Below are positions 1 through 35,757 of a DNA stretch of 42,096 nt, piece after piece. This DNA is from an uncultured Dehalococcoidia bacterium (GTDB lineage: Bacteria > Chloroflexota > Dehalococcoidia > SM23-28-2): the NCBI GenBank assembly GCA_964354065.1, contig CAYGYF010000001.1, positions 1-42,096 on the forward strand, given 5' to 3'. The stretch's first letter is position 1; the number at the start of each line of letters is the position of its first letter. The position numbers and the translations under genes are program-made. Under the pieces are notes generated by a model that ran no database searches, was not told the DNA's origin, and was given only the letters and a program-made list of their open reading frames with translations.

Positions 1-116
1 GCTTCGCCTGGTAGTCCGCGTAGAGGGGCGCACGCTTCGCCTGGTAGTCCGCGTAGAGGGGCGCAAACTTCGCCTGGTAGTCCGCGTAGAGGGGCGCACG
101 CTTCGCCTGGTAGTCC
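1..116 (-). repeat. 33-bp tandem repeat, about 3.5 copies, in-frame coding repeat
   Basis: Units at 1-33, 34-66 and 67-99, plus a partial unit at 100-116. Units differ at only 1-2 positions. 33 bp equals 11 codons in the minus-strand frame of the 1..454 CDS. The array may continue beyond the window. Confidence 0.9.
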
Positions 117-14104: not shown

Positions 14105-14974
14105 CTATACGATGGTCAGATTCGTCGCCAGGTAGGGCACCCCGATCACGATGTTGCCGCGGTCGGGGATGTCGATGTTCTCGTCGGTGGGCTTCATCCC
14201 GACGAGGGTGATCACGGTCGGCCCCTGGGCAGGCGAGACATCGCTGCACGTGGCGATGGTGATCGTCCTGTCGCCGGAGGCGATCAGGCAGTCCTGCACG
14301 TCGAGAGCAGTGCTCCCCAGGCGATAGCGCACCTCTCCCGACACCTCCAGCGCGCCCTCGTCGAGATAGTCCCAGATCCGGTCGGGCGTACGGGTCCCGC
14401 CGACGCCGAGAATCACGTTGTCGATGGCCAGGTTGTTCCTCAGCGACACGTCGATCCCGTAGAGATCGAAGGCCGGCGACGCCTCGCTCCAGGCGAGGTT
14501 GTAGTCGCGGAACATCCTCGCGCCGAAGAATGCCATCGCGCCGGGATCGGCCGCGGTCTTCGTCACCGCCCCGCCGGTCAGCGTGGCCTCACCGGTTAGT
14601 CGGCCGCCCGCGTCGCACCGCAGCGTGAAGGTATCGATCTTGCAGTCGATGCCCACATACTGGAGGATCGACGCGCCCTTGGCGTAGCCCCACTTCACCG
14701 AGAGCCAGGGGAGTTCGCCGGTGACCAGGCTGCGCAGGGCCTGGTTGATGAAGGCCCAGTCCTCGATCCCGGCGATGGAGATCGGGACCTCGGCGCTCGT
14801 CCGGCCCTCGGAAAGTTCGACGGCGCTCCAGGTGCCCACCGAGTGGACTGCCTCGACGCCGCCGCGGATCCGCGGCCGGATGTTGGCGGGAGCGCCGAGC
14901 GGCAACCAGTTCACCGCCGCCACGCCCTTCGCTCCCTGCACGCCGTAGAAGGCGCGCCCATAGCTACCCTGCAT
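14105..14974 (-). CDS. major tail (tube) protein (289 aa)
   Basis: Track ORF. Position is immediately upstream of the chaperones and tape measure. Beta-rich composition. Confidence 0.65.
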   Translation of the reverse strand: MQGSYGRAFYGVQGAKGVAAVNWLPLGAPANIRPRIRGGVEAVHSVGTWSAVELSEGRTSAEVPISIAGIEDWAFINQALRSLVTGELPWLSVKWGYAKGASILQYVGIDCKIDTFTLRCDAGGRLTGEATLTGGAVTKTAADPGAMAFFGARMFRDYNLAWSEASPAFDLYGIDVSLRNNLAIDNVILGVGGTRTPDRIWDYLDEGALEVSGEVRYRLGSTALDVQDCLIASGDRTITIATCSDVSPAQGPTVITLVGMKPTDENIDIPDRGNIVIGVPYLATNLTIV

Positions 14975-15983
14975 AGTCGTTCACCTCGTCGGTAGATGTG
15001 TCCCGCGCCAGAAGCGCGAGGGTCGCCCTAACTGCCGCGGCGGCCTCCACCGCCCGCACACATCCGCCCGGAACGTCCTCCTCCCCGACGAGACAACTGC
15101 CCGACCAGCAGGGCCAGCACTGCAAACCTTCCGGCTCCAGTGCCACCACATCATAGCACGATCCGACTGAGCCTGCACTCCCCGTCGCGCAGAACACCGC
15201 CACCGCCGGCCGCCCTACCGCCTGCGCCAGGTGCATCGGGCCTGAGTCGCCGGACACGACCACGTCCGCGGCCGCGAGGAACGCAGCCAGTTGCCTCACA
15301 GTGAGGCCCTCGGGTGCCCGCGCGCAGCAGGGCAGCACCAGACCGTCAAAAGCAACCACTGCAGCCCCTGCGTCGGCGAGCCCCTTCGCGACGTGCGCCC
15401 AGGCGCGATAGGTGCGCGTGGGCCAACCGGCCCGCGAGAACAGGGCCACCACCGGCGCCCCGCCCTTCCGCCACTTGGCCAGAACCTCCCGGCCCCAGTC
15501 CCGCTCCTGCTCGGTCAGTTCGAGCCACGGCCGGGCGTCGAACTCATCGCCGAGATTCCAGTAGTCACCCATGCAGGCCGCCGCCGATCGCTCCTTACGG
15601 CCGGGATGGTGCTCCAGCCAGCCGTCGAACATCACCGCCTGGGCGCGCTCTCCGACAGGGCCGCCCATCGGGAGTCCATCGAATACCTGCAGGTACAGCG
15701 AGTGGCACGCCGGTTGCACCCGGCCGCCTCGTCGAACCACCTCCCGCAGGACTGCTGACATGCAGAGTACGTCCCCGAAGCCGGCGCGCCGGCGCACGAT
15801 CCACTCGCCCGGGCACAGTTCGTTCGGGCCGGGTCGGTAGGCCACACCTGCCCCAACCAGCTCCGCTGCCAGAGCTTCGTCGGCCATGACGGTGTCGCCG
15901 CGGCTGGCGTCGAAATCCACGCGGCCACCGCGCCCCATGTAGAAGCGCGGCCCGGTCGATCTCAATCTCTGCAGTCTCAGCAT
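14964..15983 (-). CDS. glycosyltransferase family 9 (heptosyltransferase-like)
   Basis: Track ORF. VVSGDSGPMHLAQAVGRPAVAVF matches the GT9 signature (G-D-S-G-x-x-H-L-A). A C-terminal Cys cluster CWPCWSGSC..GGC is also seen in heptosyltransferases. Its start overlaps the upstream stop and its end overlaps the tail-tube start. Confidence 0.7.
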   Translation of the reverse strand: MLRLQRLRSTGPRFYMGRGGRVDFDASRGDTVMADEALAAELVGAGVAYRPGPNELCPGEWIVRRRAGFGDVLCMSAVLREVVRRGGRVQPACHSLYLQVFDGLPMGGPVGERAQAVMFDGWLEHHPGRKERSAAACMGDYWNLGDEFDARPWLELTEQERDWGREVLAKWRKGGAPVVALFSRAGWPTRTYRAWAHVAKGLADAGAAVVAFDGLVLPCCARAPEGLTVRQLAAFLAAADVVVSGDSGPMHLAQAVGRPAVAVFCATGSAGSVGSCYDVVALEPEGLQCWPCWSGSCLVGEEDVPGGCVRAVEAAAAVRATLALLARDTSTDEVNDYAG

Positions 15984-17423: not shown

Positions 17424-18149
17424 TCACGCCTTCTGCCCCGGCACGCCAAGGAACGCCTTCGAGACCCAGGCCTTCTCCATCGCGTCCGCGCGGTTGAGCA
17501 TGGCCGTCACGATGCCGGCGAGGGAGGCCGAGTCCTTCGTGTAGGGGCCGAGGGTCAGGCGGCCGCCCGATGCCAGTATGGTCAGGCCCGAAGCGGTGGC
17601 CACAACTCCCAGGGCACAGAACTCCAGCGCTTCGACGAGAAGGTCCTCATCGCCCGCCGGCACGGTGCTCGCGTCCGGGTAGGGAAATGTCCAGAGCCAG
17701 GCGAGGGTATCGTTCGCGGCCGGCGGTGGAGTAAGGCGGACATTCTGGCCCGGCGAGTCCTGGACGAATGAGGCCCCGAATTGCCTCCCCCAGGCGTCGA
17801 GTTGCCCTCGGTAGATATCGACCTGCGAGGGCTGATGGAACTCGATGATCACGTCGCCGAGCTGCTGGATAGGGTACGCGGGCACGAATCCGAGCACAGA
17901 TGCCCAGAGGTCAAGCACATCATCCGAATAGGGCTGCACATCGAGGCAGATGTGGCCCGAGACGGCACCGCTGGTCGGCGGCGGATACTCCTCCTGTCCG
18001 GCGATGGCCGAGAAGGTCAGCAGGAGGATGCGCGGCCGCTGGCGGGAATACGCCTGCACCGCTCCCGCCGCGGCCGCGGTCAGTTGCGCGGCGCTCAGTC
18101 CGGTGATGCCCAACAGTGCCGCCTGCGCCTCGAGCTGTGCCTGGGTCAT
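17424..18149 (-). CDS. putative head-tail connector protein (241 aa)
   Basis: Track ORF. The N-terminus LLGITGLSAAQLTAAAAGAVQAYSRQ resembles gp6-like connector N-termini. ATGA overlap with the upstream gene. Confidence 0.45.
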   Translation of the reverse strand: MTQAQLEAQAALLGITGLSAAQLTAAAAGAVQAYSRQRPRILLLTFSAIAGQEEYPPPTSGAVSGHICLDVQPYSDDVLDLWASVLGFVPAYPIQQLGDVIIEFHQPSQVDIYRGQLDAWGRQFGASFVQDSPGQNVRLTPPPAANDTLAWLWTFPYPDASTVPAGDEDLLVEALEFCALGVVATASGLTILASGGRLTLGPYTKDSASLAGIVTAMLNRADAMEKAWVSKAFLGVPGQKA

Positions 18150-18433
18150 ATCGCGCTCACTTTCGCGTCCGCTGCCGTCGCCTCGACAACGCGGCCGCAG
18201 TACCGGCAGCGATAGCGCGGCGGCTGCGCGACCTCGCCCTGCTCCCGCCGCAGTCGATCCGGCGAGTGGTCGATGTGGTCATCGCCCGCGGCCGCGCCCG
18301 CGAAGGCCCCATACCGACTGTACTCGCACTGCGGGCAGGTGTCCGCGGGAAGACCCAGGTTCACCTCGCCCGCTGGCGCGGGCATGACTGCTGCCACCAC
18401 TTTCCTCGTGATATCTGCGAGAGTCGTCGCCAT
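18146..18433 (-). CDS. Cys4 zinc-ribbon-like small protein (95 aa)
   Basis: Track ORF. Contains CPQC ... CRYC pairs. Confidence 0.55.
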   Translation of the reverse strand: MATTLADITRKVVAAVMPAPAGEVNLGLPADTCPQCEYSRYGAFAGAAAGDDHIDHSPDRLRREQGEVAQPPRYRCRYCGRVVEATAADAKVSAI

Positions 18434-18434
18434 G

Positions 18435-19430
18435 TTAGCTCCTCGGCAGCCCGATCAGGTCTCGCCAGGCCGCCTCCCACTGGTCGAGGTTGTTCCGCTC
18501 TACCGACCACCGGCGGGCCTCGGGCCCCATTAGGTCGCGCTGCTGCAGTGCCTCAGCGACGGCGTCGGCCCACTTCGCTGCCGGCGCGTCCGCACCGTCC
18601 GGCACGATCAGGCCCCATCCGTACAGGTCGAGCCGCACGGCCTTCGGGTAGGCGAACAGCCCGGCCGGGCTCACCACCATCGGCAGTCCGCAGGCCATCG
18701 CCTGCAACGCGGCATAGGAGTTGCCCTCCGCCCGCGACGCCGAGAGGAACACATCCCCCTGCGCCATGCGCGCGGCCTCGGATCCCGTCTCGCCGCCGAG
18801 CTGCCGGAACTCCACGTCGGGCAGTAGCCCCCGGAGCGCGGCCACCACATCGCCGCCTTTGCGCACACCCTCGGATGGATAGAGCACCAGCGGCCGCGTG
18901 CGCGGGGTCTTCTCGCGAGGCCGCGGGCGGAACTCATCGGTGTCAACCGCGTTCGGGATCACCGCCACCGCCTCGACGCCGTAGTGCTCGCGCAGTTCGA
19001 TGCGCGTCTTCTCGGAGACGGCTACCACCTTGCGGCGCGCGTACTCTGCCGCCTGGATCTCGCCAAGGCGCGCGGCGTGGGCGACGAAGGGCGGATCTGC
19101 CGCACTGTCCGCGGCGAATCCTCGCCATGTCCCATGCGCGACGGAGTAGACGTCATAGGGCGGAGCCGCCGGCAGTCCTCGACCCCAGAATCCGTCGACG
19201 ATCACGGCCTTGGCACCGGCCAAGGCGCCAGACTCATGGAGCCAGGCTGAGAGTTGCTCGGCCGCGTTGACCTCGGCCACGCCGCCACGGTATCCCTCCG
19301 GGTGACTCGACCAGGCCCAGACCGCCGCCCCGAGACGCTGGCGCGCGTACTCGCCGAACACGGGCACGCCGCCGCTGTGGAAGTCCGGCGCATCCCGCCG
19401 GAACCACGCAATATGATGGACCTTGCTCAC
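18435..19430 (-). CDS. glycosyltransferase, GT-B fold (GT4-like)
   Basis: GTG 19430 is preceded by GAGGAGG and overlaps the upstream stop (GTGA). SASRAEGNSYAALQAMACGLPMVVS corresponds to the GT4 E-x7-E region. AVIPNAVDTDEFRP is typical of this family. Confidence 0.7.
   Translation of the reverse strand: MSKVHHIAWFRRDAPDFHSGGVPVFGEYARQRLGAAVWAWSSHPEGYRGGVAEVNAAEQLSAWLHESGALAGAKAVIVDGFWGRGLPAAPPYDVYSVAHGTWRGFAADSAADPPFVAHAARLGEIQAAEYARRKVVAVSEKTRIELREHYGVEAVAVIPNAVDTDEFRPRPREKTPRTRPLVLYPSEGVRKGGDVVAALRGLLPDVEFRQLGGETGSEAARMAQGDVFLSASRAEGNSYAALQAMACGLPMVVSPAGLFAYPKAVRLDLYGWGLIVPDGADAPAAKWADAVAEALQQRDLMGPEARRWSVERNNLDQWEAAWRDLIGLPRS
19344..19412. repeat. 69-bp direct repeat, copy A (67/69 identical to 21361..21429)
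   Basis: Hand alignment gives two mismatches. Encodes IAWFRRDAPDFHSGGVPVFGEYAR at the N-terminus of the GT4 gene. Confidence 0.9.
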
Positions 19431-20038
19431 GACTTCCTCCTCGCCATCCAGCATTGATCGACGACCTCGACCGCCTCGTAGTCCCCGCCCTGCGCGAGTC
19501 CGTCGCATACCGATACCACTCCCGGATAGCCCTCCCGATAGTCATGCAGGCAGAGGTAGCCGCCCGGCAGCACCCAGGGAGCGAAAGCCCACACATCGCG
19601 TGACGCTCCCTCCTCGCTGTGGTCGGCATCGATGTGGAGGAGCGCCACCCCGCGATTCCAAGTCCTGGCCACGTCTCTGGAGTCGGCCTGCATCGAGTAG
19701 ATCATGCCCGGGTATCCGAGGGAGGCGATGTTGATCTCAAACCGCCGCAGGTCCTGACCCGAGTACCATGTGTCAACCGCCCAGATCGGCGGCACCTTGT
19801 CCGCATGCAGGAGCGCGTGCGCGATGAAGCACAGGCTCCTCCCCTGCAGCGAACCGATCTCCAGGATGGGACCGTCCGGTGCCTGCACCGCGCACTCGCC
19901 CAGTGCTAACCCCTCGGCGAGATCGTACTGGCCCCACACCGACCAGAGGTGCCACCAGGCGCGCTCGCCGAGGGGGAAGGCTTCAGCGAGGGACTGATAC
20001 TCTGCGGCCCGGTCGCCGTAGATGTGCTGGAGGCTCAT
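19427..20038 (-). CDS. class I SAM-dependent methyltransferase (Methyltransf_24/CmcI-like)
   Basis: ATG 20038 overlaps the upstream stop. ILEIGSLQGRS (motif I-like) and LLHIDADHSEEGASRDVWAFAPWVLPGGYLCLHD are typical of this O-methyltransferase group. Confidence 0.65.
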   Translation of the reverse strand: MSLQHIYGDRAAEYQSLAEAFPLGERAWWHLWSVWGQYDLAEGLALGECAVQAPDGPILEIGSLQGRSLCFIAHALLHADKVPPIWAVDTWYSGQDLRRFEINIASLGYPGMIYSMQADSRDVARTWNRGVALLHIDADHSEEGASRDVWAFAPWVLPGGYLCLHDYREGYPGVVSVCDGLAQGGDYEAVEVVDQCWMARRKS

Positions 20039-20862
20039 AACGCGCACTCCTCGGGTTGCCCATCCGCGGTGAAGGTCGGCAGGCCGCGCGCAGTCGCTTC
20101 CTCCGCTCGCATGAACCACCAGGGCATCCCGCCACCATTCGCGACGATCACCCAGCCGGCCTGCTCGAGGACCGGCAGCAGGCTGTCGGTGTAGACGTGA
20201 ACCGGATTCCCGTCATCCTTCGGCCGCCCAGTCACCCCGGAGCTGCAGATCGCGATGCGTGCCCGGTCGAGGAGTTGCCGCAGGACCGCCGGCGCGTTGG
20301 CGATGTGCTCGAGGACCTCCAGGCAGAGTACCGCGTCCCAAGTCTCGCTGCTCTCCAGCACCGCCTCCGGGTCCCTGGGCCGGTGGGTGTTCAGGTCGAG
20401 TCGACCGCCCAACCGCCAGCACAGGAACTCCCGCGCATCGCCAGGCAGGTCGCAGTAGGTCACCGGCACGTCGAGTTGGGCCGCCAGGTGCAGGCCGATC
20501 TCGCCGACGCCGCTGCCGAAGTCGAGCACTGATCGCACCTGCAGGCGCTCGCACATCTCCCGCACCGACTCGGGCCATCCGTATTCCCACTCGCAGAGCG
20601 CCCAGTTCAGCCAGTTCCAGACCGAGTCCTGGCCCGAGGAGGCGCCCAGGGCGAAGAGCAGCGCCCCTCGCGTCACGCCGAAGAACTGCTGGGCCTCGAG
20701 GCGGAGCTGGGCCATCCGGTCCCGGGTGCAGGCCGACGTCCACTGCGAGGGACCGGCCCCGGCTGCGCTGGTGGCGGCCAGTGGCTCGCATCCGCCCTGG
20801 GGCTGGTCTACCCCGCCGGGCTCCTCCTGATCGCGCTGCCGCAGGAAGGTGTCCGTCGTCAT
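20035..20862 (-). CDS. class I SAM-dependent methyltransferase
   Basis: Track ORF. VLDFGSGVGEIG (motif I) and WDAVLCLEVLEHI (motif post-II/III). Confidence 0.7.
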   Translation of the reverse strand: MTTDTFLRQRDQEEPGGVDQPQGGCEPLAATSAAGAGPSQWTSACTRDRMAQLRLEAQQFFGVTRGALLFALGASSGQDSVWNWLNWALCEWEYGWPESVREMCERLQVRSVLDFGSGVGEIGLHLAAQLDVPVTYCDLPGDAREFLCWRLGGRLDLNTHRPRDPEAVLESSETWDAVLCLEVLEHIANAPAVLRQLLDRARIAICSSGVTGRPKDDGNPVHVYTDSLLPVLEQAGWVIVANGGGMPWWFMRAEEATARGLPTFTADGQPEECAL

Positions 20863-21116
20863 CTCGCCACCAACCTCGACGCGATCTTACCCGCCGCCCG
20901 CTTCCGGGCTCGCCGCGTCATGTGCAGACCGCTCGCCCCGCGCACCGCCTCGAGCCAGATGCTCGATAGCCCGAGGAGGCAGTCGGCGAAGTCCCCGTAC
21001 CGCGCGGACCGCACCGTCGTCCGCCACCAGAACCGCAGCACCCGCCGCTGCATCACGTAGCGGTAGCCGCCCTCGACCTGCTCGATTAGAACTCTACGCC
21101 TGAGCATCTTTGTCAT
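20859..21116 (-). CDS. small basic hypothetical protein (about 85 aa)
   Basis: Distal part of track ORF 20859..21296. Candidate ATGs at 21116 and 21107. Its stop overlaps the methyltransferase start (ATGA). Start choice is uncertain. Confidence 0.4.
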   Translation of the reverse strand: MTKMLRRRVLIEQVEGGYRYVMQRRVLRFWWRTTVRSARYGDFADCLLGLSSIWLEAVRGASGLHMTRRARKRAAGKIASRLVAR

Positions 21117-21516
21117 CCCCATGCTTCGCCGCGGCACTCCGCGCGAGTTCCGCCCCCACATCGAGGCCCAACCGAAGATCGGCGATGGCCGCGAGAGCCC
21201 GTTCCCGCTTACCTCTGGGGCCCAGGTCTGGAATCGCGACCGTCCACCCCTTGCGTTCGATGGTCCCCGATGCGCCCACGCAGTCCAGTTGTACACTGAA
21301 GCCTACCACCATGGTCGGCTCACCATTGACAGTCACCGAAGACCCCTCGAGGCGCAGCCTCGCGTATTCGCCGAACACCGGCACGCCGCCGCTGTGGAAG
21401 TCCGGCGCATCCCGCCGGAACCACGCAATGTAGCCCCTGTCTATCACGATATAGATCCGCGTCGCATCCGGGTTGAACCGCCCGGAAGGTTCCGCCCCGC
21501 CGTTCGTCTCTCCCAT
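21094..21516 (-). CDS. hypothetical protein (140 aa) sharing a 24-aa segment with the GT4 N-terminus
   Basis: ATG 21516 overlaps the upstream stop by 1 nt. MGETNGGAEPSGRF...IAWFRRDAPDFHSGGVPVFGEYAR is identical to the start of the 18435..19430 product, after which the two diverge. Confidence 0.55.
   Translation of the reverse strand: MGETNGGAEPSGRFNPDATRIYIVIDRGYIAWFRRDAPDFHSGGVPVFGEYARLRLEGSSVTVNGEPTMVVGFSVQLDCVGASGTIERKGWTVAIPDLGPRGKRERALAAIADLRLGLDVGAELARSAAAKHGDDKDAQA
21361..21429. repeat. 69-bp direct repeat, copy B
   Basis: See copy A at 19344..19412. Confidence 0.9.
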
Positions 21517-23642
21517 CAGTCGCTGCCTCCTTGCTGTGCCGCCTGCCATCGTGCCAGCCTCCCTCTGAATACCTGCTCGTCGTGGTCCCAGGCCGCCTTC
21601 GTCCCCTCCGGCCGCCGCCCGCCGCCCGCCACGAAGTGCCAACCCACCGCGCCCGTGTCTACGAGGAGGCGATGCCCGCCCAGCAGGTGCAGTCGGATCG
21701 ACGCGTCTGACTCCTCCCGCTGCCCGAACCGCGAGTAGCAATCCGCGAATCCGCCCGGCTCTCCCGGTAGGTGGGCCTCCTCCAGGTAGCGACTCCGGTA
21801 CATCCACGTCGAGTACAGGTGCTCGCACTCGACCACCTCGCCGGCGCCGCGCCACCAGCGCATCTGCAGCGGAGCCGCTCCCACCAGCATCTCGGCGATG
21901 CGGTTGTCCATGCCGCGCTTGCCGCGGTGGGCGGCATAGTCCAGTTCCTGCGCATTCCACTCCGGGTAACTGCCGCCCACTGCACCCACGTCGGCGGCCC
22001 GGTTGATCAGCCGATAGAGGCGCTCGCTGAAGTCGGCCGTGGCCGGCAACACATCATCGTCGATGCGCAGCACCAGGTCCGTACCCAACCACCGCCGCGC
22101 TATCTCGTGGTTCTGCGATGCACCCTTGCCTGAGCCCGCCACCACCTCGGCGCGAATCCCACGGTGTTTCATCAGCGCCACGAGGTGCGCGATGGCCGGG
22201 TTCTGCGCCAGGCCGCCGCCGTCATCCACGATGCAGACGGCTTGCGGCAGTCTCGTTTGGCAGAGGAGCGCGCCGAGGAGGGCCGCGAGATAGCCAGGTC
22301 GGTCCCGCGTGGGGATGCCTACCCCGAGGGTCTCATCGGCCGTGATAGGGGAGGGGGGAGGTACTGCCGGCGAGGAGGTGACGGCCGCCGGGCGGGGGTG
22401 ACCGTCGTCGTTCGACAGCACCTCGACCCCCACGTCCAAACCCAACACACCCGCGAACCCGCGCGCCATGCGCGCGTAGGAGAACCGCTGCCGGAGGCCG
22501 TTGGCCTCGGCGACCTGGTGGGCCTCACGCCGCGGCTCCTCGACCATACGGCGCATCCATACCACGATCTCGTCCACGTTGGCATCGGCCCAGTGAGGTT
22601 CCTCGCCGGGGCCCCACCAGTGCGGATTCGCCTCGTTCCGGGAGAGGGTGTAGCCGAATAGGGTCGCATTCTCGGGCGTGGTATAGTCGAGTTGGCCCGA
22701 CCAACCGGTGGTGCCCAACCGACACCCGCAGGCGAGCGCCTCCAGTCCGGTCAGTCCGAACCCCTCGCAGCGTGACGGCATGATGTAAGCGCCGTGCTGC
22801 GCCGCGCGCCGGTAGGTCGCAGCGATCTGGGCTGGCTCCCAGGTGTCGTAGACGTAGGTGAGTTCAGGGGCCTTGTCCCCGAGGCGCTTCCGCCAGGCCG
22901 CGACCTGCTCCTGGCACCACCCTTTGCGGCCCCAACCGTAGTCGTAATCCTTGAGCACCAGCGTCACGGGATCGTCACGGTCAAAGGCCTTGCCATAGGC
23001 CTCCAGCGCCAGGTCGAACCCCTTGCGCGGATTCTGCGCGCCGAGGGAGAGGAAGACAAACCGATTGCCGGCGAGGTCCGCGACCGGGCCCTCGGGCCGG
23101 TAGAGGTCGGTGTCGATGCAGTGGTTGACCACATGGCAGCGTTCCGGCGCGATCCCCGATCGCACCAGCGCGTCCCGGATCGCCTGCGAGCCGCAGATGA
23201 TCCCGTCCCACGCGCGCAGGAGCGCGATGTGCGAGGCCGGGAACATGTCCGCGTCCGGGTGCGGCCACGCGAAACGCCCCGCGGGTCCCTCGAATGTGGC
23301 GCTGTTGCACAGGTAACTCTGGCCGGTCTGGGCCTGGTCTGTCGCGCGCCAGGGGAACCGGTCGACTCGCACGCCCAGGGTGCGCAACGCACGCGATAGG
23401 CCTTCGGTCAGCAGGCAGAGTGAGTGCCCGCAGGCCGGCTTGCACAAGGTGTCGCCATGCCCGCGGGAGATGCCTCGGTAGAACGCGATGGACTTCGCGG
23501 TATCGAGTTCGGCCACCACCGCCACGTCGGGCCAACCCGCGGCGATCTCCAGAGGGACCCTCGCCGTCCCGCCCGGCTCGATCACGTAGATGCCATGGAG
23601 TTGTTTGATTCGCGTCGTGTTCTGCACCAGCACATCGGCCAC
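21516..23642 (-). CDS. two-domain glycosyltransferase: N-terminal GT-B (GT4-like) fused to C-terminal GT-A (GT2-like)
   Basis: GT-B signature: PSRCEGFGLTGLEALACGCRL. GT-A signature: GVGIPTRDRPGYLAALLGALLCQT, IVDDGG, RIDDDV (DxD). The start is ambiguous: GTG 23642 has GAGGAG 6 nt upstream, and ATG 23681 is the alternative. Confidence 0.75.
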   Translation of the reverse strand: MADVLVQNTTRIKQLHGIYVIEPGGTARVPLEIAAGWPDVAVVAELDTAKSIAFYRGISRGHGDTLCKPACGHSLCLLTEGLSRALRTLGVRVDRFPWRATDQAQTGQSYLCNSATFEGPAGRFAWPHPDADMFPASHIALLRAWDGIICGSQAIRDALVRSGIAPERCHVVNHCIDTDLYRPEGPVADLAGNRFVFLSLGAQNPRKGFDLALEAYGKAFDRDDPVTLVLKDYDYGWGRKGWCQEQVAAWRKRLGDKAPELTYVYDTWEPAQIAATYRRAAQHGAYIMPSRCEGFGLTGLEALACGCRLGTTGWSGQLDYTTPENATLFGYTLSRNEANPHWWGPGEEPHWADANVDEIVVWMRRMVEEPRREAHQVAEANGLRQRFSYARMARGFAGVLGLDVGVEVLSNDDGHPRPAAVTSSPAVPPPSPITADETLGVGIPTRDRPGYLAALLGALLCQTRLPQAVCIVDDGGGLAQNPAIAHLVALMKHRGIRAEVVAGSGKGASQNHEIARRWLGTDLVLRIDDDVLPATADFSERLYRLINRAADVGAVGGSYPEWNAQELDYAAHRGKRGMDNRIAEMLVGAAPLQMRWWRGAGEVVECEHLYSTWMYRSRYLEEAHLPGEPGGFADCYSRFGQREESDASIRLHLLGGHRLLVDTGAVGWHFVAGGGRRPEGTKAAWDHDEQVFRGRLARWQAAQQGGSD

Positions 23643-23707
23643 TGCCCGCTCCTCGCCCCGCAGGATGGGGCGGCGCACCATCCAGGCTACGCCGCCCCGA
23701 CAGTCGC

Positions 23708-26700
23708 CTACCAATCAACGCCCACGACGCCCGGCTGGGTCGTCACGGTTGCGTAGCAGTTGCCCACAACCTTCGCGTACCCGAACCGGCTCATCGCCGA
23801 CTCAGACTCGCAGAAAGTCCCGTCCGCCACGAACGGCGTGGTGACGTAGAGGGGGATGAACGGGCAGAAGATCGTGCCCGCGTCCGGCCACTCTGGGCCC
23901 TTGCGCCCGAGGAGCAGAAGGTCGGTCGGGAAGAAGTCGGCATCGCAGCCGTACACCTTGAGAGTCGGAGAGCCCTGGATCGTGCCGATCAGGTTCAGGC
24001 CGACCTCCCAGTCTCGCGCCTCCGGGTCGCCGGTCGTGGCCACCCACGACTGCAGCGACATGAGGCGGATCAGGGCGTTCTGTCCGGCCACCACCCAGTT
24101 CGCTCGGGCGCGGCGGGTCGCTCGGATCAGGCCGTCGCCGCGGAGAATGAACTGGTAGAGCTTGCGCTCCCACTCGGTGTGGTTGGTGTAGCCGAGCAGC
24201 GGCATCGCGGTGCCGTAGTTGATGTTGCCCGCGGTGATGATGCCCGCCGGGTCCGCGGCAGTGCGCATCACGTTCAGCAGCAGCGCATTCACCTCCCTGG
24301 CGATCTCGTCGGCCATGAAGTTCACCATCTCGCTGGCGATGTTCAGGCCGAAGTCGGCCAGGATGTTCTGGCGCACCTCGGTCGACCACTCGGCCCGGAG
24401 CTTCTTGGTGTCCATGGTGATGTCGCTGTGTGAGAGGGTGAGCTTCACCTCGCGCATCGGCGACTGCTCGCTGATGTGCTGTGCGTACTCGCTCTGGAAC
24501 TGACCCGGGATGGCGGGGTCGCCGAGGCTCGGATCGTACAGGAAGTTCAGGAAGTGGACGATCCCGGTGCTGCGATTCATCGGCTGCACCGAGCACAGTT
24601 CGCGGGCGATCAGCCGCGCCCACACCTGCCGGATGATGGGCAGGATGTAGGGGACGGTCTGCGCGACCGCTGCGACGCCGGTCCACTCCATCCGGGCTCG
24701 CATATCCGGATGGAGGTGCGGCCGGAAATACACCCCGCGGTCAAGGCGAAGCATGTTCTCCGCGATCACGCGGAACTGATGCTTCTCGTTGCCGGGGTGG
24801 TAGCCGGGGAACGGGAGATTGCGGCCCATGTAAGCGACGATGGGGTCCTCGGGGTCGCTGGACGAACGGAGGCCGTTGTCCGGGAGGCCCTCGGTCAGAA
24901 GGTCGATGGCCTCCTGAATGTCGCGCGGCTTGTCGGCGTCACGGAGCTGGCCCAGCTGGAAGAGCTTGGCGCGCTCCTTGGTGACGCCCTCGCGCGAGAG
25001 CGCATCGTGCACGGGCGAGAGGCCCCTGCCGGTGGGCTGACCGTTGATCACGATCATGCCCATCTCGGTCAGGTGGCGCTGCGTCTGCTCCAGGGTCGGG
25101 GCGATCTGCACAGGGTCGGTGACCTCGCTGAGGCGGAGATCCAGGAACTTGCGGGCCGGCTCATTCCAAGCCGCGATCTCCGGGCGTTCCATGATCGCCT
25201 TGCGGGTCTCGGTCAACACCGCGGTCGTCACGCCCGCCTTCTTCTCGGCTTCCTGCTCCGAGATGAAGGTGTTGACGCGCGCCATGGTCTCCTCGACCTT
25301 GGCCAGCACGTCGCCAGTCGGCGCGGCCGCGACAACGGGCTTCGTCTCGGTCGCCACAGCAGCATCGGCCGCGGCAGGATCGCCCTCCGCCGGCTTGCCA
25401 TCACCGTTGACTTTGCCGGCCAGCGTCTCCATCACCGGCTTGAGGCCCGCGGTGATCAACTCACGCGTTTTCGCTTCGAATTCAGCCAGAGTCATTTGCT
25501 CCAGCACCTCATCGATGATCTCGCCCTGTGCGTCGTCCTCCACGCGCGTTGGGTCTGCCGCAGGCGAGACCCGCTCGCTGAAGCTCGTGACTCCGGCGCC
25601 ATCGGCGCCGGCTCCGAGCACGAAGTCCCAGCCGCCCCAGTGTTCTAGGGCGGAGGTCTCGTCAACCACCTCGACGGTTTTCCCGTCGCGCACATCCCTT
25701 TTGGTCGTCGCGAATGTCCTACTCGATACCTGGACCGGGACGCCATAGCGGATCTGTTTCTGCACGTCGAGGCCGGCCGCGGTCGGGATGATAGTCGTCT
25801 CGCCGCGCAGCCAACCCTCGGCCACGTGCAGGTTCCGCCAGGGCGTGGTCACCGTCGATGCCAACCGCGGGTAGCCGTCCGCGGGATGGTCCTGCTCGCC
25901 CAGCCATCGCCGAGCCCGCTCGGTCTGGGCCGTGCTCTCGGCCACGAGTTGGTCGGCGAGTTTCTGCGTGTAGACCCGACCGTTCTTGGTCGGCGTCCCC
26001 ACCGGCGTCAGTCGGCACTCGACCGTCATCACCGGATCGCCGCGGTCGTCGGTCGTCTCCGTCACCACCCGCAGGCCATCCCTGAGGTCGGCACGGAAGG
26101 TCTCGACGAGTTCGGTCTCCATACCGAGGGCGCGCCCGGTCGACGCAGGCACATCAGGCGTAGGCGGGGGCGTCGCGGCGGGTGAACCTGTGGGGATGGT
26201 CTGGTCGCCGGCGCGCAGGCTCACCGTGACCGGCTGCACGTTGCTCAGCACTATTGCCCCGTCGTCGCCGCGCGCCCAGACCGCGGAGTAGAGACTATCG
26301 TTCCTGCCCGACACCACGACCTGCCCGGGCCGGGTACCCTCGACGGAGCAGTAGGCGTGCTCCTCGTCGGCCCCGAACAGGGCGGCGTTATCGCGCACCG
26401 CCTTGCGCAGATCGGCGATGGTCGCCTCGTAGGTACCGGAAATGGTCACCCATGCCTCGAGCAGCGGCTCCGCGTCCCCATCGACTGGCAGGTATTCCGT
26501 GAAGGAGTCGCCGAGCCGGAAGGCCTCCTTGATGCTCGCAGGGATGTCCGTGTCCTTGACCTTCAGCCGCTTGTAGGCAGCGCGGATCTTTGCCTTCGCT
26601 CCCGCCACCGCGTCGGCCGGGAGCTGCACCTTCTGCCCGCGGAACCCACCCGGGGAGAAGGCGGCCGCGGCCCGGCCCAACTGCGCGACTGTGACTTTCG

Positions 26701-26911
26701 CGGTCGGAGACTCCCACAGGCGGAGCTTCCACTCGGAGGGTTTGTCGGGGTCTGGCGCGTAGGCATAGGCCTCCCGCGGGTATGACTCCCCGCCCTCCGT
26801 TTTGGTCGCCTCCATCGTCGGCGCGGCCTGCTCCATCAGCGCCAGGAGCCGATCGCCTTCGGCGTCCCTCGCCTCCCGTAGGCGAGCCTTGACCTTCTCT
26901 GTTCTCGTCAT
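23708..26911 (-). CDS. head polyprotein: N-terminal domain + T4 gp21-like prohead protease + scaffold-like linker + major capsid protein (1067 aa)
   Basis: Internal ATG 26911 of track ORF 23708..27199; the upstream part is R/G junk. KNGRVYTQKL, LGEQDHP and VQVSSRTFA line up with the gp21 motifs NKRLYPK, LGELNHP and GVSSRGLG. A long acidic/helical linker follows. The C-terminus has ARELCSVQPMNRSTGIVHFLNF, typical of HK97-fold/gp23-like capsid proteins. Confidence 0.75.
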   Translation of the reverse strand: MTRTEKVKARLREARDAEGDRLLALMEQAAPTMEATKTEGGESYPREAYAYAPDPDKPSEWKLRLWESPTAKVTVAQLGRAAAAFSPGGFRGQKVQLPADAVAGAKAKIRAAYKRLKVKDTDIPASIKEAFRLGDSFTEYLPVDGDAEPLLEAWVTISGTYEATIADLRKAVRDNAALFGADEEHAYCSVEGTRPGQVVVSGRNDSLYSAVWARGDDGAIVLSNVQPVTVSLRAGDQTIPTGSPAATPPPTPDVPASTGRALGMETELVETFRADLRDGLRVVTETTDDRGDPVMTVECRLTPVGTPTKNGRVYTQKLADQLVAESTAQTERARRWLGEQDHPADGYPRLASTVTTPWRNLHVAEGWLRGETTIIPTAAGLDVQKQIRYGVPVQVSSRTFATTKRDVRDGKTVEVVDETSALEHWGGWDFVLGAGADGAGVTSFSERVSPAADPTRVEDDAQGEIIDEVLEQMTLAEFEAKTRELITAGLKPVMETLAGKVNGDGKPAEGDPAAADAAVATETKPVVAAAPTGDVLAKVEETMARVNTFISEQEAEKKAGVTTAVLTETRKAIMERPEIAAWNEPARKFLDLRLSEVTDPVQIAPTLEQTQRHLTEMGMIVINGQPTGRGLSPVHDALSREGVTKERAKLFQLGQLRDADKPRDIQEAIDLLTEGLPDNGLRSSSDPEDPIVAYMGRNLPFPGYHPGNEKHQFRVIAENMLRLDRGVYFRPHLHPDMRARMEWTGVAAVAQTVPYILPIIRQVWARLIARELCSVQPMNRSTGIVHFLNFLYDPSLGDPAIPGQFQSEYAQHISEQSPMREVKLTLSHSDITMDTKKLRAEWSTEVRQNILADFGLNIASEMVNFMADEIAREVNALLLNVMRTAADPAGIITAGNINYGTAMPLLGYTNHTEWERKLYQFILRGDGLIRATRRARANWVVAGQNALIRLMSLQSWVATTGDPEARDWEVGLNLIGTIQGSPTLKVYGCDADFFPTDLLLLGRKGPEWPDAGTIFCPFIPLYVTTPFVADGTFCESESAMSRFGYAKVVGNCYATVTTQPGVVGVDW

Positions 26912-27147: not shown

Positions 27148-27377
27148 CACCCGCCCTCCTGCGGCCGCCCGATCCACTTTCCATCGCGGATAATACCACG
27201 CTTTACCGCAATGCGATAGATGGGCAAGCGTTGAAATGTGGCCAGGGACAGGCCCTGCTGCTCCAGCCAGGCAGCGAATTCCTCCGTACCGTAGGGCGGC
27301 AGATCCCAGCCCTGCTTTGTCCAGTCGGCGTTCGTGTCGACCTCGTCGAGGTTCAGATCGTAGACTTCGGCGCTCAT
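27147..27377 (-). CDS. hypothetical acidic protein (76 aa), candidate partner/immunity protein of the MuF-ART
   Basis: ATG 27377 overlaps the MuF-ART stop (ATGA). Starts MSAEVYDLNLDEVDTNADWTKQGWDLPPYGTEEF. Confidence 0.5.
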   Translation of the reverse strand: MSAEVYDLNLDEVDTNADWTKQGWDLPPYGTEEFAAWLEQQGLSLATFQRLPIYRIAVKRGIIRDGKWIGRPQEGG

Positions 27378-34460: not shown

Positions 34461-35723
34461 CTAGTCACATTCCGCCTTCTCCCCGGTCAGACCCTCCCAC
34501 CTGGCGAGGATAACATCGCAGTAGTGCGCATCCAGGTCGAAGCCAAAACAGCGCCGGCCGGTGCGCTCGGCGGCCATGATGGCGGTGCCCGATCCCAGGA
34601 AGGCGTCCACCACCAGGTGGCCGAGTTCGGTGGCATTCGAGATCGTGCGCTCGATCAGCGCCAGCGGCTTCATGGTCGGGTGCAGATCGTTGGCGAGGGG
34701 CTTGTCGTGCTCCCACACCGTGCGCTCGTTGGTGGGACCGTGCCAACGGGGGGCCTGACCTCGCTTGAACGCGTAGAAGCAGGGCTCGTACCAGTGCTTG
34801 TATTGGGCGAAGAGCGCACCGGCGCCGTTGTTCTTCACCCACACCAGCAGGTTCCGTTCCTGCCAGCCGGTCTCGGCCAGGCAGTCGAGTACGTGGCGCA
34901 AATGGGTGCTAGCGAACCACAGGTAGAGGGGGGCTTTGTCGTCGGAGTGCTGATGCGCTAGGCCCAGACTGCCTACGAGCAAGGCCCGGTACTGCTCCGG
35001 CGTCAGATCGTCCCAGTAGGCGTCGGGCTCCTGCCCATCGGCTCCCCGGCGATGCGCGGAGATGCGCTCCTCCTGGGCGGCCCGGCCGCCAACGTAGTTG
35101 ATGCCAGAGGGCGGATCAGTGACGACGGCGTGTGCGAGTTCGCCGGCCATCAGGCGCTGCCAGTTCGCGGGGTCCGTGGCATCGCCGCACATCACCCGAT
35201 GCCGCCCCAGCGCCCACACCTCGCCCGCCTGCACCCGCGTCGGCCCCTGCTGTACCTCGGGGACCTCTTTCTCCTCGCGCCTCTTCATCTCCCGCGTGCG
35301 CAGGCCCGCGAGCAGGTCCTTAAGGCCGGCGTCCGAGTACCCACTCGCGGGCAGTTCGCCGCGGCCCTGCAGGTCCTGGAGCAGGGAGGCCAACGCCCCC
35401 TCGTCCGGCTCCGCGAGCGTGGCGAGGTAGTTGTCGGCGACGATGTAACTCTCGGGATGGTCGCCGGCATAGACTCCGCAGGCGATGCGCGTCCAGCCGA
35501 TCGACTGTGCGGCCTCGACCAGGCCGTGGCCGGCGAGGATGGTGCCATCGGAGGTGATGACGACGTTCTTGACCTGTCCGTGGTCACGGAGGGACTGCCC
35601 GAGGCGGGCGATCTGGTCGCTGCTGTGGCGATTGTAGTTTTGGGGGTGCGGGCGCAGACTCGCCAGGTCCCGCATCTCGATGCGAAGCGTGGCCTCATCA
35701 GCCGCAGGCGTGATGGTGCTCAT
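34461..35723 (-). CDS. ParB-like nuclease domain / DNA methyltransferase (N6A/N4C, PF01555-type) fusion
   Basis: ParB box LRPHPQNYNRH. Motif IV-like TDPPSG (35117-35106). Motif I DAFLGSGT near the C-terminus. ATG 35723 is preferred over track GTG 35741. Confidence 0.8.
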   Translation of the reverse strand: MSTITPAADEATLRIEMRDLASLRPHPQNYNRHSSDQIARLGQSLRDHGQVKNVVITSDGTILAGHGLVEAAQSIGWTRIACGVYAGDHPESYIVADNYLATLAEPDEGALASLLQDLQGRGELPASGYSDAGLKDLLAGLRTREMKRREEKEVPEVQQGPTRVQAGEVWALGRHRVMCGDATDPANWQRLMAGELAHAVVTDPPSGINYVGGRAAQEERISAHRRGADGQEPDAYWDDLTPEQYRALLVGSLGLAHQHSDDKAPLYLWFASTHLRHVLDCLAETGWQERNLLVWVKNNGAGALFAQYKHWYEPCFYAFKRGQAPRWHGPTNERTVWEHDKPLANDLHPTMKPLALIERTISNATELGHLVVDAFLGSGTAIMAAERTGRRCFGFDLDAHYCDVILARWEGLTGEKAECD

Positions 35724-35729
35724 GCGCGC

Positions 35730-35757
35730 AGTATACCACACCCGGGCCTCAGCACAA
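35730..35757 (-). promoter_or_regulatory. candidate promoter for the methylase gene, possibly giving a near-leaderless mRNA
   Basis: Minus strand reads TTGTGC (35757-35752), 16 nt, TGG-TATACT (-10 at 35735-35730). Only 6 nt lie between the -10 and ATG 35723, with no SD sequence. Confidence 0.35.

Follow-up and report, generated by a model that had tools for sequence, protein, structure and literature searches.

Why does an uncultured phage carry glycosyltransferase and methyltransferase genes between its capsid and head-tail adaptor genes, and what do their products modify? The question is raised by a stretch of 42,096 nucleotides (hereafter, the window), a contig that is probably incomplete. 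The best reading, which we hold to be probable, is that this cassette glycosylates the phage's own virion proteins with a methylated glycan.

Genes and junctions of the late block

The genes are all encoded on the minus strand, and the GC content at third codon positions (GC3) backs the called frames (Table 1). The block that runs from the capsid to the tube gene comprises 13 tightly packed genes, spaced by gaps of -29 to +26 nt (in order: +26, -1, -29, -4, -4, -4, +1, -4, +1, -4, +10, -7 and -11 nt). The stop of the GT4-GT2 fusion gene and the start of orf140 have a single base in common at 21516, and ATGA/GTGA start-stop overlaps are located at 20859-20862, 20035-20038 and 19427-19430. Strand, GC3 and gaps bear out the initial annotation, which described a co-directional island between the capsid polyprotein gene and the head-tail connector genes, and the start-stop coupling that it listed at these sites was re-found in the sequence. 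Within the capsid-to-tube block, no promoter-like or terminator-like sites above chance were observed. Separate sequencing runs (Logan contigs) were 100% identical over 22229-19383 and 16451-13406.

Table 1 Features of the window from the capsid gene to the tail tube gene
Feature	Position	Strand	Basis or remark
Fused head protease, scaffold-like region and Gp23-type major capsid protein	23708..26911	-	1067 aa from ATG 26911 (probable start); directly upstream of island
Two-enzyme glycosyltransferase (GT4-GT2 fusion), 721 aa	21516..23681	-	Pfam, 11-sequence alignment, AlphaFold2, Foldseek
85-nt direct repeat, copy A	21345..21429		92% identical to copy B; Logan contig L113 spans it
orf140, window-specific chimeric ORF	21094..21516	-	Repeat, alignment with GT4 N-termini, homologue search
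orf87, 87 aa (82 aa from next ATG), pI 11.9, very basic	20859..21122	-	GC3 0.8-1.0 in frame
Class I SAM methyltransferase (Methyltransf_23/12 type), 275 aa	20035..20862	-	Pfam Methyltransf_23 and Methyltransf_12
Class I SAM methyltransferase, Methyltransf_24 family, 203 aa	19427..20038	-	Pfam E 7e-18
85-nt direct repeat, copy B	19328..19412		Within GT4 gene 5' end
Stand-alone GT4 glycosyltransferase, 331 aa	18435..19430	-	Pfam GT4 families; GTG start overlaps upstream stop
Cys4 protein, 95 aa, two CxxC pairs (zinc-ribbon-like)	18146..18433	-	Read from sequence
Head-tail adaptor (SU10-adaptor type)	17424..18149	-	Downstream border of island; one protein family in all loci
GT9 (heptosyltransferase-fold) enzyme, 339 aa	14964..15983	-	Pfam, AlphaFold2, Foldseek, alignments
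Tail tube protein (Phage_tube_2)	14105..14974	-	Pfam E 1e-8

The genes that frame the island were assigned by family searches. The capsid polyprotein matches Pfam Gp23 (E 1e-36) and, in PHROGs, both major head protein and head maturation protease, and its homologues in the relatives carry Peptidase_S77 plus Gp23. Adaptor homologues in relatives L004, L030, L031 and L032 match PF24175.

The 140-aa product, which had been listed as an unknown protein, is encoded by a chimera carrying an 85-nt copy of the GT4 gene 5' end, and alignment with GT4 N-termini places this copy at codons ~28-55. The rest of orf140 has no homologue anywhere; searched against 1.84 billion representative proteins, orf140 matched only itself, one GT4 N-terminus and two weak, short sequences (E 8e-5 and 6e-4). 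No remnant of the relatives' genes was found in its region. The ORF is also present in an independent Logan contig, and two Logan contigs end inside repeat copy B, at 19383. It is probably a recombination scar. The unknown protein of about 85 aa corresponds to orf87, which has strong coding-type GC3, is called at 82 aa in an independent contig, and has neither a Pfam, PHROG or NCBIfam match nor a homologue in the relatives. The gene for the reported Cys4 mini-protein is present, but at 18146-18433, and was left out of the range first given for the island because that range ends at 18435. Cys4 homologues of 98-115 aa occur in L001, L004, L007, L011 and L012, and in the close relatives the gene is always flanked by the GT4 and adaptor genes.

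Enzyme families of the cassette

Every enzyme call of the initial annotation, namely a GT-B plus GT-A fusion, two class I SAM methyltransferases, a GT4-like glycosyltransferase and a GT9 gene beside the tail tube gene, was backed by the HMM searches and structure predictions that it had proposed, and the predicted folds agree with the families. In the 721-aa fusion, a small N-terminal beta domain (residues 16-69) is followed by a GT4 (GT-B) module (~87-413) and, past a disordered linker (419-449), by a GT2 (GT-A) module (452-718). Pfam GT4 families match residues 145-412, and Glycos_transf_2 matches residues 454-571 at 22.7 bits, slightly below its 23.3-bit cut-off. Both catalytic motifs, E306-x7-E314 and D541-D542-D543, are strictly conserved across 11 aligned homologues, as is the motif C80..C84-G-H-S-L-C89. 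The AlphaFold2 (AF2) model (pLDDT 69) matched GT4 and GT-A enzymes in Foldseek.

The stand-alone GT4 is present in all relatives. Its E-x7-E motif reads E-x7-Q in the window, and the second Glu is missing in seven of the eight close-group genes, the window included, which counts against virion glycosylation. The 275-aa methyltransferase is 58% identical to a protein of L001, belongs to one protein family with those of L001 and L004, and shows homology to the relatives from near residue 39 onwards. The 203-aa Methyltransf_24 protein, found in five of the seven relatives, is likely a sugar O-methyltransferase.

The GT9 enzyme matches Pfam Glyco_transf_9 at 43.8 bits (cut-off 22), and its gene overlaps the tube gene by 11 nt. 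Alignments show a shortened acceptor domain and a phage-specific N-terminal beta domain. Foldseek matches to the AF2 model (pLDDT 80) were 3TOV, TibC, WaaF and WaaC. The fold match to the TibC/AAH autotransporter heptosyltransferases, which are GT9-fold protein O-heptosyltransferases, is at least as good as that to the LPS heptosyltransferases (TM-score normalised to query, 0.52-0.58 for TibC versus 0.38-0.49), and a protein acceptor, proposed for the phage GT9, would be a further likeness. The sequence profile, in contrast, is far nearer WaaF/WaaC (E 1e-24) than TibC (E 7e-3). In the 11-sequence A2 alignment, four Cys of the C-terminal domain are strictly conserved. They are absent from L030 and L032, and the same pattern also occurs in ordinary cellular GT9 proteins.

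Conservation in relatives and other viruses

The initial annotation had suggested examining by comparative genomics whether the island always lies among structural genes. All seven close relatives retrieved, each of them from a metagenome, carry it in the same place, with the protease-capsid gene on one side and the adaptor gene on the other. The ends of these islands are fixed, consisting of the GT4-GT2 fusion and the GT4, and the middle varies, containing a phosphodiesterase family, one to three methyltransferases, an epimerase/dehydratase (NAD-dependent, in L004) or an N6/N4 methylase (in L007). The window has lost the phosphodiesterase-family gene and the third methyltransferase, both kept in all close relatives, and its pathway may therefore be altered, which also counts against virion glycosylation. 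In the close group, the GT9 family was present only in genomes with this tube family.

In distant relatives, whose capsid identity is only ~30% and whose GC content is 42-52%, a GT4 next to the capsid gene is retained, and so is a GT9 within the region of connector and tail genes. L030 and L032 carry the GT4 between the capsid and adaptor genes and the GT9 after the connector genes, and L031 carries two GT9 genes and a methyltransferase-like gene between the capsid and adaptor genes. Across a whole phage lineage, the island is a constant component of the late structural block, and the hosts of the relatives probably differ because GC differs greatly. In other viral contigs, GT9 adjoins unrelated capsid genes, with methyltransferases next. 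A survey of 47 further non-redundant viral loci that have a GT9-like gene covered two genes on each side: those upstream included capsid proteins belonging to four or five distinct Pfam families, and those downstream were enriched in class I methyltransferases (11 of 84 proteins), with GT2 and sugar epimerase/dehydratase genes present as well.

Probable virion glycosylation and competing explanations

The analysis showed the families of the enzymes, the integrity of their catalytic motifs, the tight coupling of the genes and the conservation of their position. Because the enzyme calls hold, no Gtr-type, flippase, polymerase or transmembrane features were found and the island is fixed in the late block, a cytoplasmic pathway acting on phage products is favoured. 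The earlier proposal that such a pathway builds a methylated oligosaccharide on phage proteins agrees with the enzymes, their solubility and their late-block location, whereas its target is inferred. The major capsid protein is a likely acceptor, and the tail tube protein is likely that of the GT9 enzyme. A comparison of capsid C-termini revealed no tail specific to phages bearing glycosyltransferases, a result that counts against this reading.

The combination had been considered to match no described system. Its enzyme families, its lineage and the position of the GT9 among connector and tail genes, where in the close group it immediately adjoins the tube gene, are new, but the concept is already known from mycobacteriophage Corndog (Cluster O), in which gp35-gp38 encode an O-methyltransferase and three glycosyltransferases. 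These genes lie within the structural operon, and their start and stop codons overlap, as in the window. The Corndog O-methyltransferase gp35 matches both Pfam Methyltransf_24 and TylF, so that each phage has one Methyltransf_24-matching methyltransferase. Passages of PMC12363180 and PMC11600133 that cite Freeman et al. 2023 report capsid and tail-tube glycosylation in Che8, Corndog and Myrna, the same targets as those proposed here. To date, such a coat on the phage particle has been demonstrated for some mycobacteriophages only. Corndog has small GT-A-type enzymes (GT2-like and GT25-like) between portal and protease, whereas the window has a GT4-GT2 fusion, a GT4, a GT9 and two methyltransferases at two separate sites, one following the capsid gene and the other preceding the tube gene, in a lineage with a T4-like portal and capsid and a siphovirus-type tail. 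No homology between the island enzymes and the mycobacteriophage enzymes was detectable, which counts against the virion reading. Chlorovirus PBCV-1 (A064R, A061L and other viral glycosyltransferases) likewise encodes a soluble multi-domain glycosyltransferase and two class I SAM methyltransferase activities, which methylate the terminal sugar of its capsid (Vp54) glycan, and does not use the membrane glycosylation pathway (PMC9614988). It differs as a eukaryotic giant virus with scattered, early-expressed genes, other glycosyltransferase families and N-linked, chemically defined glycans.

Soluble GT4, GT2 and GT9 enzymes also make lipid-linked envelope glycans, which counts against virion glycosylation. 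The GT9 belongs by sequence to an LPS-heptosyltransferase-type family, the GT4/GT2 modules resemble the polysaccharide enzymes EpsD, HfsG, GlgM, HepE, TarP and TarS, and such cellular enzymes are likewise soluble or peripheral. The enzymes might thus act on lipid-linked LPS core, O-antigen, exopolysaccharide or teichoic acid intermediates and so alter the surface of the cell in late infection, which might prevent superinfection, for instance, or keep progeny from re-adsorbing to debris. We consider such remodelling of the host envelope unlikely. As first annotated, the cassette lacks flippase, polymerase and Gtr-type genes; no other membrane protein or transmembrane segment was found in the island proteins, and no match reached an NCBIfam equivalog cut-off. 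The genes are not moron-like but translationally coupled within the capsid-to-tube block, the same two positions are held across relatives very different in GC and hence probably in host, and the remodelled acceptor domain and phage-specific N-terminal domain of the GT9 point away from an envelope substrate. Gtr seroconversion clusters and O-antigen modifying glycosyltransferases are also phage-encoded, but they use membrane proteins (flippase, bactoprenol-linked glycosyltransferase) and are located near attachment sites as accessory genes, whereas the proteins here are all soluble and embedded in the late block.

It is more doubtful still that the product is a free or carrier-bound methylated oligosaccharide, like the mycobacterial methylmannose polysaccharides, that the target is a non-virion protein, or that the cassette is a decaying remnant in this genome that no longer makes its original product. 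ManT (7QSG; PMC9883506), a mannosyltransferase for methylmannose polysaccharide, and the methyltransferase 6G7D are indeed among the fold and sequence neighbours, and the gene losses and the chimeric ORF would fit decay. All five enzyme genes, however, are full length with conserved motifs and coding-type GC3, and that they keep their position next to the capsid and tube genes speaks for targets linked to the virion.

Glycosylation of hydroxymethylated phage DNA bases around packaging, as in T4 (alpha/beta-GT) and in metagenomic phages with 5hmC-glycan gene clusters, is the least probable explanation. Phage GT-A/GT-B enzymes recruited from envelope pathways and akin to those for LPS and teichoic acid are known to glycosylate DNA, and the sugars that they add include heptose. 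Some of the 5hmC-glycan clusters are found near structural genes (bioRxiv 10.1101/2023.12.21.572611), and L001 encodes a C5 DNA methylase and the L007 island the N6/N4 methylase. In the 42-kb window, however, neither a 5-methylpyrimidine dioxygenase nor a thymidylate-synthase-like hydroxymethylase, other base-hydroxymethylation enzyme or C5 methylase was found, and the C5 methylase of L001 lies 8 kb off, past the terminase, portal and capsid genes. Neither model had a T4 beta-glucosyltransferase-like match in its top 50 folds, the methyltransferases are of the small-molecule/sugar type, one sharing Methyltransf_24 with Corndog gp35, and the GT9-tube gene overlap would be hard to account for.

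For virion glycosylation, we infer acceptors, sugars, order of steps and benefit to the phage as follows. The phage-encoded, cytoplasmic cassette would be expressed together with the late structural genes, and its capsid-adjacent enzymes would draw on host nucleotide-sugar and SAM pools. The initial statement that nucleotide-sugar genes are missing is correct for the window and does not extend to L004, with its epimerase/dehydratase. The GT4-GT2 fusion would start and extend a short glycan on the major capsid protein, the stand-alone GT4 would add a further sugar, and the two methyltransferases would O-methylate sugar hydroxyls and cap the glycan. The GT9, encoded directly ahead of the tube gene, would modify the tail tube subunit, possibly with heptose, so that head and tail would both carry a glycan coat. 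The middle of the cassette is a variable cargo slot, of which the window has a reduced version, and it would give related phages different glycans.

Architecture of the structural block

The window is one entire NCBI contig of 42,096 bp with 68% GC, and nearly all of its genes lie on the minus strand. The order on this strand is replication initiator, ParB-N6/N4 DNA methylase, small and large terminases, T4-type portal, MuF-like protein, fused protease-scaffold-Gp23 capsid protein and the glycosyl/methyltransferase island, followed by an SU10-type adaptor, DUF3599 and gp10-like connector proteins, the GT9 gene, the Phage_tube_2 tail tube, tape measure and tail fibre-like proteins, and a lysis cassette. 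The gene set of the window contains no tail sheath gene, which points to a siphovirus-type particle with a T4-like head. The lack of a terminal repeat and the small number of replication genes make it probable that the contig is incomplete. Neither tRNA genes nor Rfam matches were found in it, and the DUF5131 protein, used as a query for the remaining parts of the relatives' genomes, gave no match. Searches of 50,697 phage records returned no cultured relatives (capsid identity to jumbo and T4-like phages does not exceed 29%), and a scan of 185,579 species genomes revealed no prophage copy, the sole match being a distant archaeal GT2 domain.

Several other features of the contig were observed. 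The head protease, a scaffold-like region and the Gp23-type capsid protein share one ORF, the start of which is probably at 26911, and this fusion is kept throughout the lineage (800-1200 aa in relatives); such fusions are unusual among T4-like heads. The MuF-like minor head protein has 738 aa, compared with about 320-360 aa in relatives. Its C-terminal extension of about 400 aa has no family match and gave nothing significant in a PDB sequence search, and on visual inspection the final 200 aa look like an ADP-ribosyltransferase-type toxin (R / S-x-S / E-x-E pattern), a kind of domain that occurs in MuF-fused polymorphic toxins. The 3' end of the same gene contains a perfect tandem duplication encoding the repeated peptide KDERLAWG. 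The repeat at the very start of the contig could be a contig-end assembly artefact or a genuine repeat array. One tail-fibre-like protein without a family match has several His/Thr-rich runs, such as HTHAGQSHNHVLADHTHTQ and HVHTQTHTHTLSHGHTGG, reminiscent of the metal-binding HxH repeats in some phage fibre tips. The ParB-N6/N4 methylase fusion lies near the terminase, and at the corresponding place the close relative L001 carries a C5 methylase.

From capsid to tube the block is tightly packed, with 13 genes and successive gaps of +26, -1, -29, -4, -4, -4, +1, -4, +1, -4, +10, -7 and -11 nt; promoter-like and terminator-like sites within it were not above chance. The start-stop overlaps listed in the initial annotation proved exact on re-check. 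No hydrophobic stretch strong enough to span a membrane was seen in any island protein, and the GtrA flippase, GtrB bactoprenol glycosyltransferase and polytopic serotype glycosyltransferase families are absent from the window by Pfam, as expected from the earlier statement that Gtr-type membrane genes are missing. Over 22229-19383 and 16451-13406, the sequence is matched at 100% identity by contigs of four further sequencing runs. Taken together, the junctions, Pfam matches, motifs, AlphaFold2 models, absence of transmembrane segments and identical independent contigs show that an enzyme island within the structural block is real and far beyond chance. The Cys4 mini-protein had been placed within 18435-23681; the protein exists, but its gene falls outside that range.

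Coordinates of features in the window and in related or unrelated loci
Feature	Sequence	Coordinates	Strand
33-nt unit, 3.5 copies (95% matches)	window	1-116	
741-aa tail-fibre-like protein	window	7459-9684	-
Tail tube (Phage_tube_2)	window	14105-14974	-
GT9 enzyme, 339 aa	window	14964-15983	-
Cys4 mini-protein	window	18146-18433	
Stand-alone GT4, 331 aa	window	18435-19430	-
85-nt direct repeat, downstream copy	window	19328-19412	
Methyltransferase, 203 aa	window	19427-20038	-
Methyltransferase, 275 aa	window	20035-20862	-
orf87	window	20859-21122	-
orf140	window	21094-21516	-
85-nt direct repeat, upstream copy	window	21345-21429	
GT4-GT2 fusion protein, 721 aa	window	21516-23681	-
Protease-scaffold-capsid ORF, ~1067 aa	window	23708-26911	-
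MuF-like minor head protein	window	27374-29590	-
24-nt tandem duplication, 2.2 copies	window	27412-27464	
ParB-N6/N4 methylase	window	34461-35741	-
PF01663 gene (present in the other close relatives too)	L001	12897-13883	
PF01663 gene	L004	12112-13095	
PF01663 gene	L008	12100-13071	
C5 methylase	L001	995-2008	
N6/N4 methylase within the island	L007	4609-6024	
Volactin	L054	4817-5800	

Enzymes of the island and its rearranged middle

The first island gene had been described as a GT-B plus GT-A fusion, and the Pfam modules, invariant motifs and AlphaFold2/Foldseek folds agree on this. Model match and fold assign residues ~87-413 to CAZy GT4 (GT-B, retaining), with scores over the cut-off for PF20706 (44.2 bits) and PF00534 (31.8 bits), Foldseek matches to GlgM, HepE and ManT, and an E-x7-E motif (E306-GFGLTGL-E314) that is invariant across 11 fusion-protein homologues. 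Residues 452-718 are assigned to GT2 (GT-A) by model match, fold and a DxD motif (DDD, 541-543), which is likewise invariant across the 11 homologues, and the fold matches include chondroitin polymerase, COLGALT1, TarP and SpsA. The score against PF00535 (Glycos_transf_2) is slightly below the cut-off (22.7 versus 23.3 bits); in the homologues this family appears in the precomputed Pfam column for P0002-P0008, P0010 and P0011, and in the gene tables it is graded faint for P0003 and unmarked for P0004 and P0005. The AlphaFold2 model (pLDDT 69) comprises a small beta domain, the GT-B module, a disordered linker and the GT-A module. We also considered a shared targeting domain in the fusion protein and GT9, and rejected it because their N-terminal beta domains are not homologous (hhalign probability 0.2%).

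For the last enzyme of the island, called GT4-like, Pfam GT4 matches are above cut-off, yet seven of the eight close-group genes, including that of the window, have E/D-x7-Q in place of the usual motif. The second Glu is replaced by Gln in the window, L004, L007, L008, L011, L012 and L014, and is kept only by L001. The substitution suggests that the donor site is atypical or that the protein has an altered, possibly non-catalytic, role. Rossmann-fold Pfam models match both proteins annotated as class I SAM methyltransferases, namely Methyltransf_23 (39.7 bits) and Methyltransf_12 (38.1 bits) for the 275-aa protein and Methyltransf_24 (65.9 bits) for the 203-aa protein. PDB entry 6G7D is presumably the M. 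hassiacum sugar 1-O-methyltransferase MeT1. None of the eight proteins had a PADLOC match, despite the Pfam "GT4-conflict" label, and none reached an NCBIfam cut-off.

Between these enzymes, two proteins had been reported as unknown, which stood for one of them. orf87, with very high GC3 and an extremely basic product (pI 11.9), has no family in Pfam, PHROG or NCBIfam. orf140, in part, is derived from the GT4 gene: owing to an 85-nt direct repeat (92% identical, copies 2017 nt apart), its codons ~28-55 duplicate the initial strand-loop-helix of the stand-alone GT4. When 1.84 billion representative proteins were searched exhaustively, orf140 matched itself, a GT4 N-terminus and two weak short sequences (E 8e-5 and 6e-4), with essentially no match outside the repeat segment. 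The repeat copies bracket orf87 and both methyltransferase genes, and recombination between them would remove those genes and join the beginning of orf140 onto the main part of the GT4 gene. At the position of orf140 and orf87, all seven close relatives carry a gene of the phosphodiesterase/alkaline-phosphatase superfamily (PF01663) and a further methyltransferase gene, of which no remnants were found in the window; in every close relative, the PF01663 gene directly follows the fusion gene with an overlapping start. We read the orf140/orf87 stretch as a recombination scar and the island of the window as a reduced, rearranged version. Mis-assembly was rejected for 22229-19383, because this stretch is covered by two contigs of other runs that overlap each other and are 100% identical to it; beyond 19383, the continuation into the GT4 gene is seen in the window assembly only. 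Two independent contigs end inside the downstream repeat copy. The presence of the PF01663 gene in the relatives is a hint that the glycan may carry a phospho-linked substituent.

A GT9 gene adjoining the tail-tube gene had also been noted, and the gene order agrees, a Glyco_transf_9 match being followed by Phage_tube_2. The enzyme belongs to GT9 by PF01075 (43.8 bits, cut-off 22), by profile matches to WaaF and 3TOV at E 1e-24, and by a model (AlphaFold2, pLDDT 80) whose 30 best Foldseek PDB matches are all GT9 structures; the D(S/T)GxxH nucleotide-sugar motif was seen in alignments. Against the NCBIfam equivalogs of the LPS heptosyltransferases WaaC/WaaF/WaaQ it scored 30 bits at best (cut-offs 135-569), and about 70 residues of the N-domain of cellular GT9 proteins are missing and an extra N-terminal beta domain is present; by these features it does not qualify as one of their orthologues. 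The beta domain, which cellular GT9 proteins lack, and the shortened acceptor domain are common to phage GT9 proteins, and the four invariant Cys of the phage proteins are also found in cellular ones. The modelled fold is closer to the autotransporter heptosyltransferase TibC (TMq 0.52-0.58) than to WaaC/WaaF (0.38-0.49), whereas the sequence is closer to WaaF (E 1e-24) than to TibC (E 7e-3), so that TibC-type membership would be slightly favoured by fold and not by sequence. Heptose is suggested as its sugar by family alone.

Conservation and the candidate pathway

Homologues of the fusion protein, at 45-56% identity, were found in metagenomic and viral contigs only. The comparison called for by the initial annotation placed the island between the protease-capsid and adaptor genes in every sufficiently flanked locus. 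Its ends are fixed, with the fusion gene first and GT4 last, and in most loci a ~100-aa Cys protein follows the terminal GT4. The middle varies, containing the PF01663 gene, one to three methyltransferases and small unknown genes, as well as an NAD-dependent epimerase/dehydratase in L004 and an N6/N4 methylase in L007; such a methylase was also observed within the island of L011. Variation of this kind is usual in glycan loci. Within the close group, members of the GT9 family are confined to genomes that have the same tube family. Three distant relatives (L030-L032) keep the layout, and their ~30% capsid identity and 42-52% GC imply that they probably infect quite different hosts. L030 and L032 have the order capsid, GT4, adaptor, three small genes and GT9; placement of GT9 beside the tube refers to the close group. 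In L031, two GT9 genes and one methyltransferase-like gene lie in the interval from capsid to adaptor. What the GT4 of the distant relatives resembles most is the GT4 module within the fusion protein, and its motif is canonical.

The best-supported reading, which we consider probable, is a cytoplasmic, late-expressed pathway that builds a short O-methylated glycan on virion proteins. The analysis establishes the enzyme classes, intact motifs, solubility, coupling and deep positional conservation, while the acceptors, sugars, order of steps and benefit to the phage are what we infer. Host nucleotide sugars and SAM would feed the synthesis, the capsid protein would be the target of the capsid-adjacent enzymes and the tube subunit that of GT9, and the benefit could be particle stability or shielding from proteases, antibodies, grazers or host receptors. 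As a candidate acceptor, a C-terminal tail specific to the capsids of glycosyltransferase-bearing phages was rejected, since a comparison of C-termini gave no clear pattern.

The family labels would also be compatible with enzymes that remodel the host envelope, but we regard this as unlikely given that there is no membrane component at all, that the genes are embedded unlike morons, and that they are conserved across probably different hosts. Because the window has lost two conserved genes, a small probability, lower still, is left for another target or a decayed pathway. DNA glycosylation is a real possibility in phages, where such clusters can be close to structural genes, and part of the genome is probably missing from the contig, but we consider it very improbable, as the probably incomplete 42-kb window has no base-hydroxymethylation enzyme, none of the marks of DNA-hypermodification clusters (a glycosyltransferase by a C5 methylase plus 5-methylpyrimidine dioxygenase, or by a thymidylate-synthase-like hydroxymethylase), and no T4 beta-glucosyltransferase-like match among the top 50 fold matches of the GT9 or fusion model.

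Beyond this lineage, GT9-like genes were found in 69 viral contigs, with 47 non-redundant groups outside the close lineage. Among the two genes upstream were capsid families (Phage_capsid, Gp23, Phage_cap_E and Phage_capsid_4), prohead protease, portal and terminase, and in the two genes downstream class I methyltransferases were frequent (11 of 84 proteins), with GT2, epimerase/dehydratase, GDP-mannose dehydratase and sulfotransferase genes also among them. By a rough, informal estimate, GT9 is capsid-adjacent in at least 5 of the 47 loci, compared with about 1.4 expected by chance. In the unrelated low-GC viral contig L054, a full-length Volactin gene (PF25216, E 4e-74) lies just upstream of a gene for a 909-aa GT9-containing protein. 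As a tentative and rather doubtful extension, the GT9s next to capsid and tail genes might be a clade of their own, specific to phages, that glycosylates (possibly heptosylates) proteins and uses its conserved N-terminal beta domain to recognise the structural protein encoded next door. Cassettes that combine GT9 (or GT4) with methyltransferases by capsid or tube genes might then be a widespread, unrecognised virion-coating system among environmental phages far beyond the actinobacteriophages, with a cargo slot whose exchangeable genes diversify the methylated glycan much as O-antigen loci do.

Relation to known systems and meaning

Virion glycosylation in mycobacteriophages is the closest system described. 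In mycobacteriophage Corndog, the genes for an O-methyltransferase and three glycosyltransferases overlap by 4 and 8 nt and lie between portal and protease (PMC4351075), and according to three later papers, capsid and tail-tube subunits of Che8, Corndog and Myrna are modified by such enzymes (PMC11600133, PMC12363180, PMC12619734). Two further analogies can be drawn. In PBCV-1, a three-domain enzyme (two glycosyltransferase domains and a methyltransferase domain) and a second methyltransferase finish the capsid glycan (PMC9614988), and in mycobacterial methylmannose polysaccharide synthesis, GT4 ManT, a fold neighbour of the fusion model, is paired with sugar O-methyltransferases (PMC9883506).

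As read from the genes alone, the window shares with the mycobacteriophages the co-location and co-expression of glycosyltransferases, with or without an O-methyltransferase, with virion genes. The Corndog O-methyltransferase also matches Methyltransf_24, like the 203-aa protein of the window, and TylF in addition, whereas its glycosyltransferases come from other Pfam families. The two Methyltransf_24 proteins compare at E 0.1, and no detectably homologous enzyme pair was found between the two cassettes. In tblastn searches of 50,697 phage records, the fusion protein had only weak Streptomyces phage matches, with no homology to the Che8 gp110/Corndog gp38 group, and the stand-alone GT4 had no match. 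Because homology is undetectable and the glycosyltransferase families differ, the cassette appears, by analogy, to work like the mycobacteriophage system and is not a member of it by descent. The initial annotation had recognised no described system; since the general idea is already known, the finding is not categorically new. What is new is the enzyme set, the two-site layout (one site by the capsid gene, the other in the connector/tail block, where in the close group it immediately precedes the tube gene), and the lineage-wide conservation of the cassette. The recurring capsid-adjacent GT9-methyltransferase cassettes in unrelated viral contigs are also new, no description of them having been found in the literature.

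In the literature consulted, experimental evidence of phage-encoded virion glycosylation comes from only a few mycobacteriophages, in which it shields particles from antibodies. Such genes should not be annotated by default as host-surface or DNA-modifying. The enzymes are candidates for glyco-engineering of phage particles, and their activity may explain why some virion proteins escape peptide mass spectrometry. The reading predicts a tail tube modified by an enzyme of the heptosyltransferase fold. If it is true, virion glycosylation would be older and more widespread than the mycobacteriophage cases, and throughout a whole uncultured lineage it would belong to the head-and-tail module as a fixed component, built from enzyme families other than those of the mycobacteriophages.
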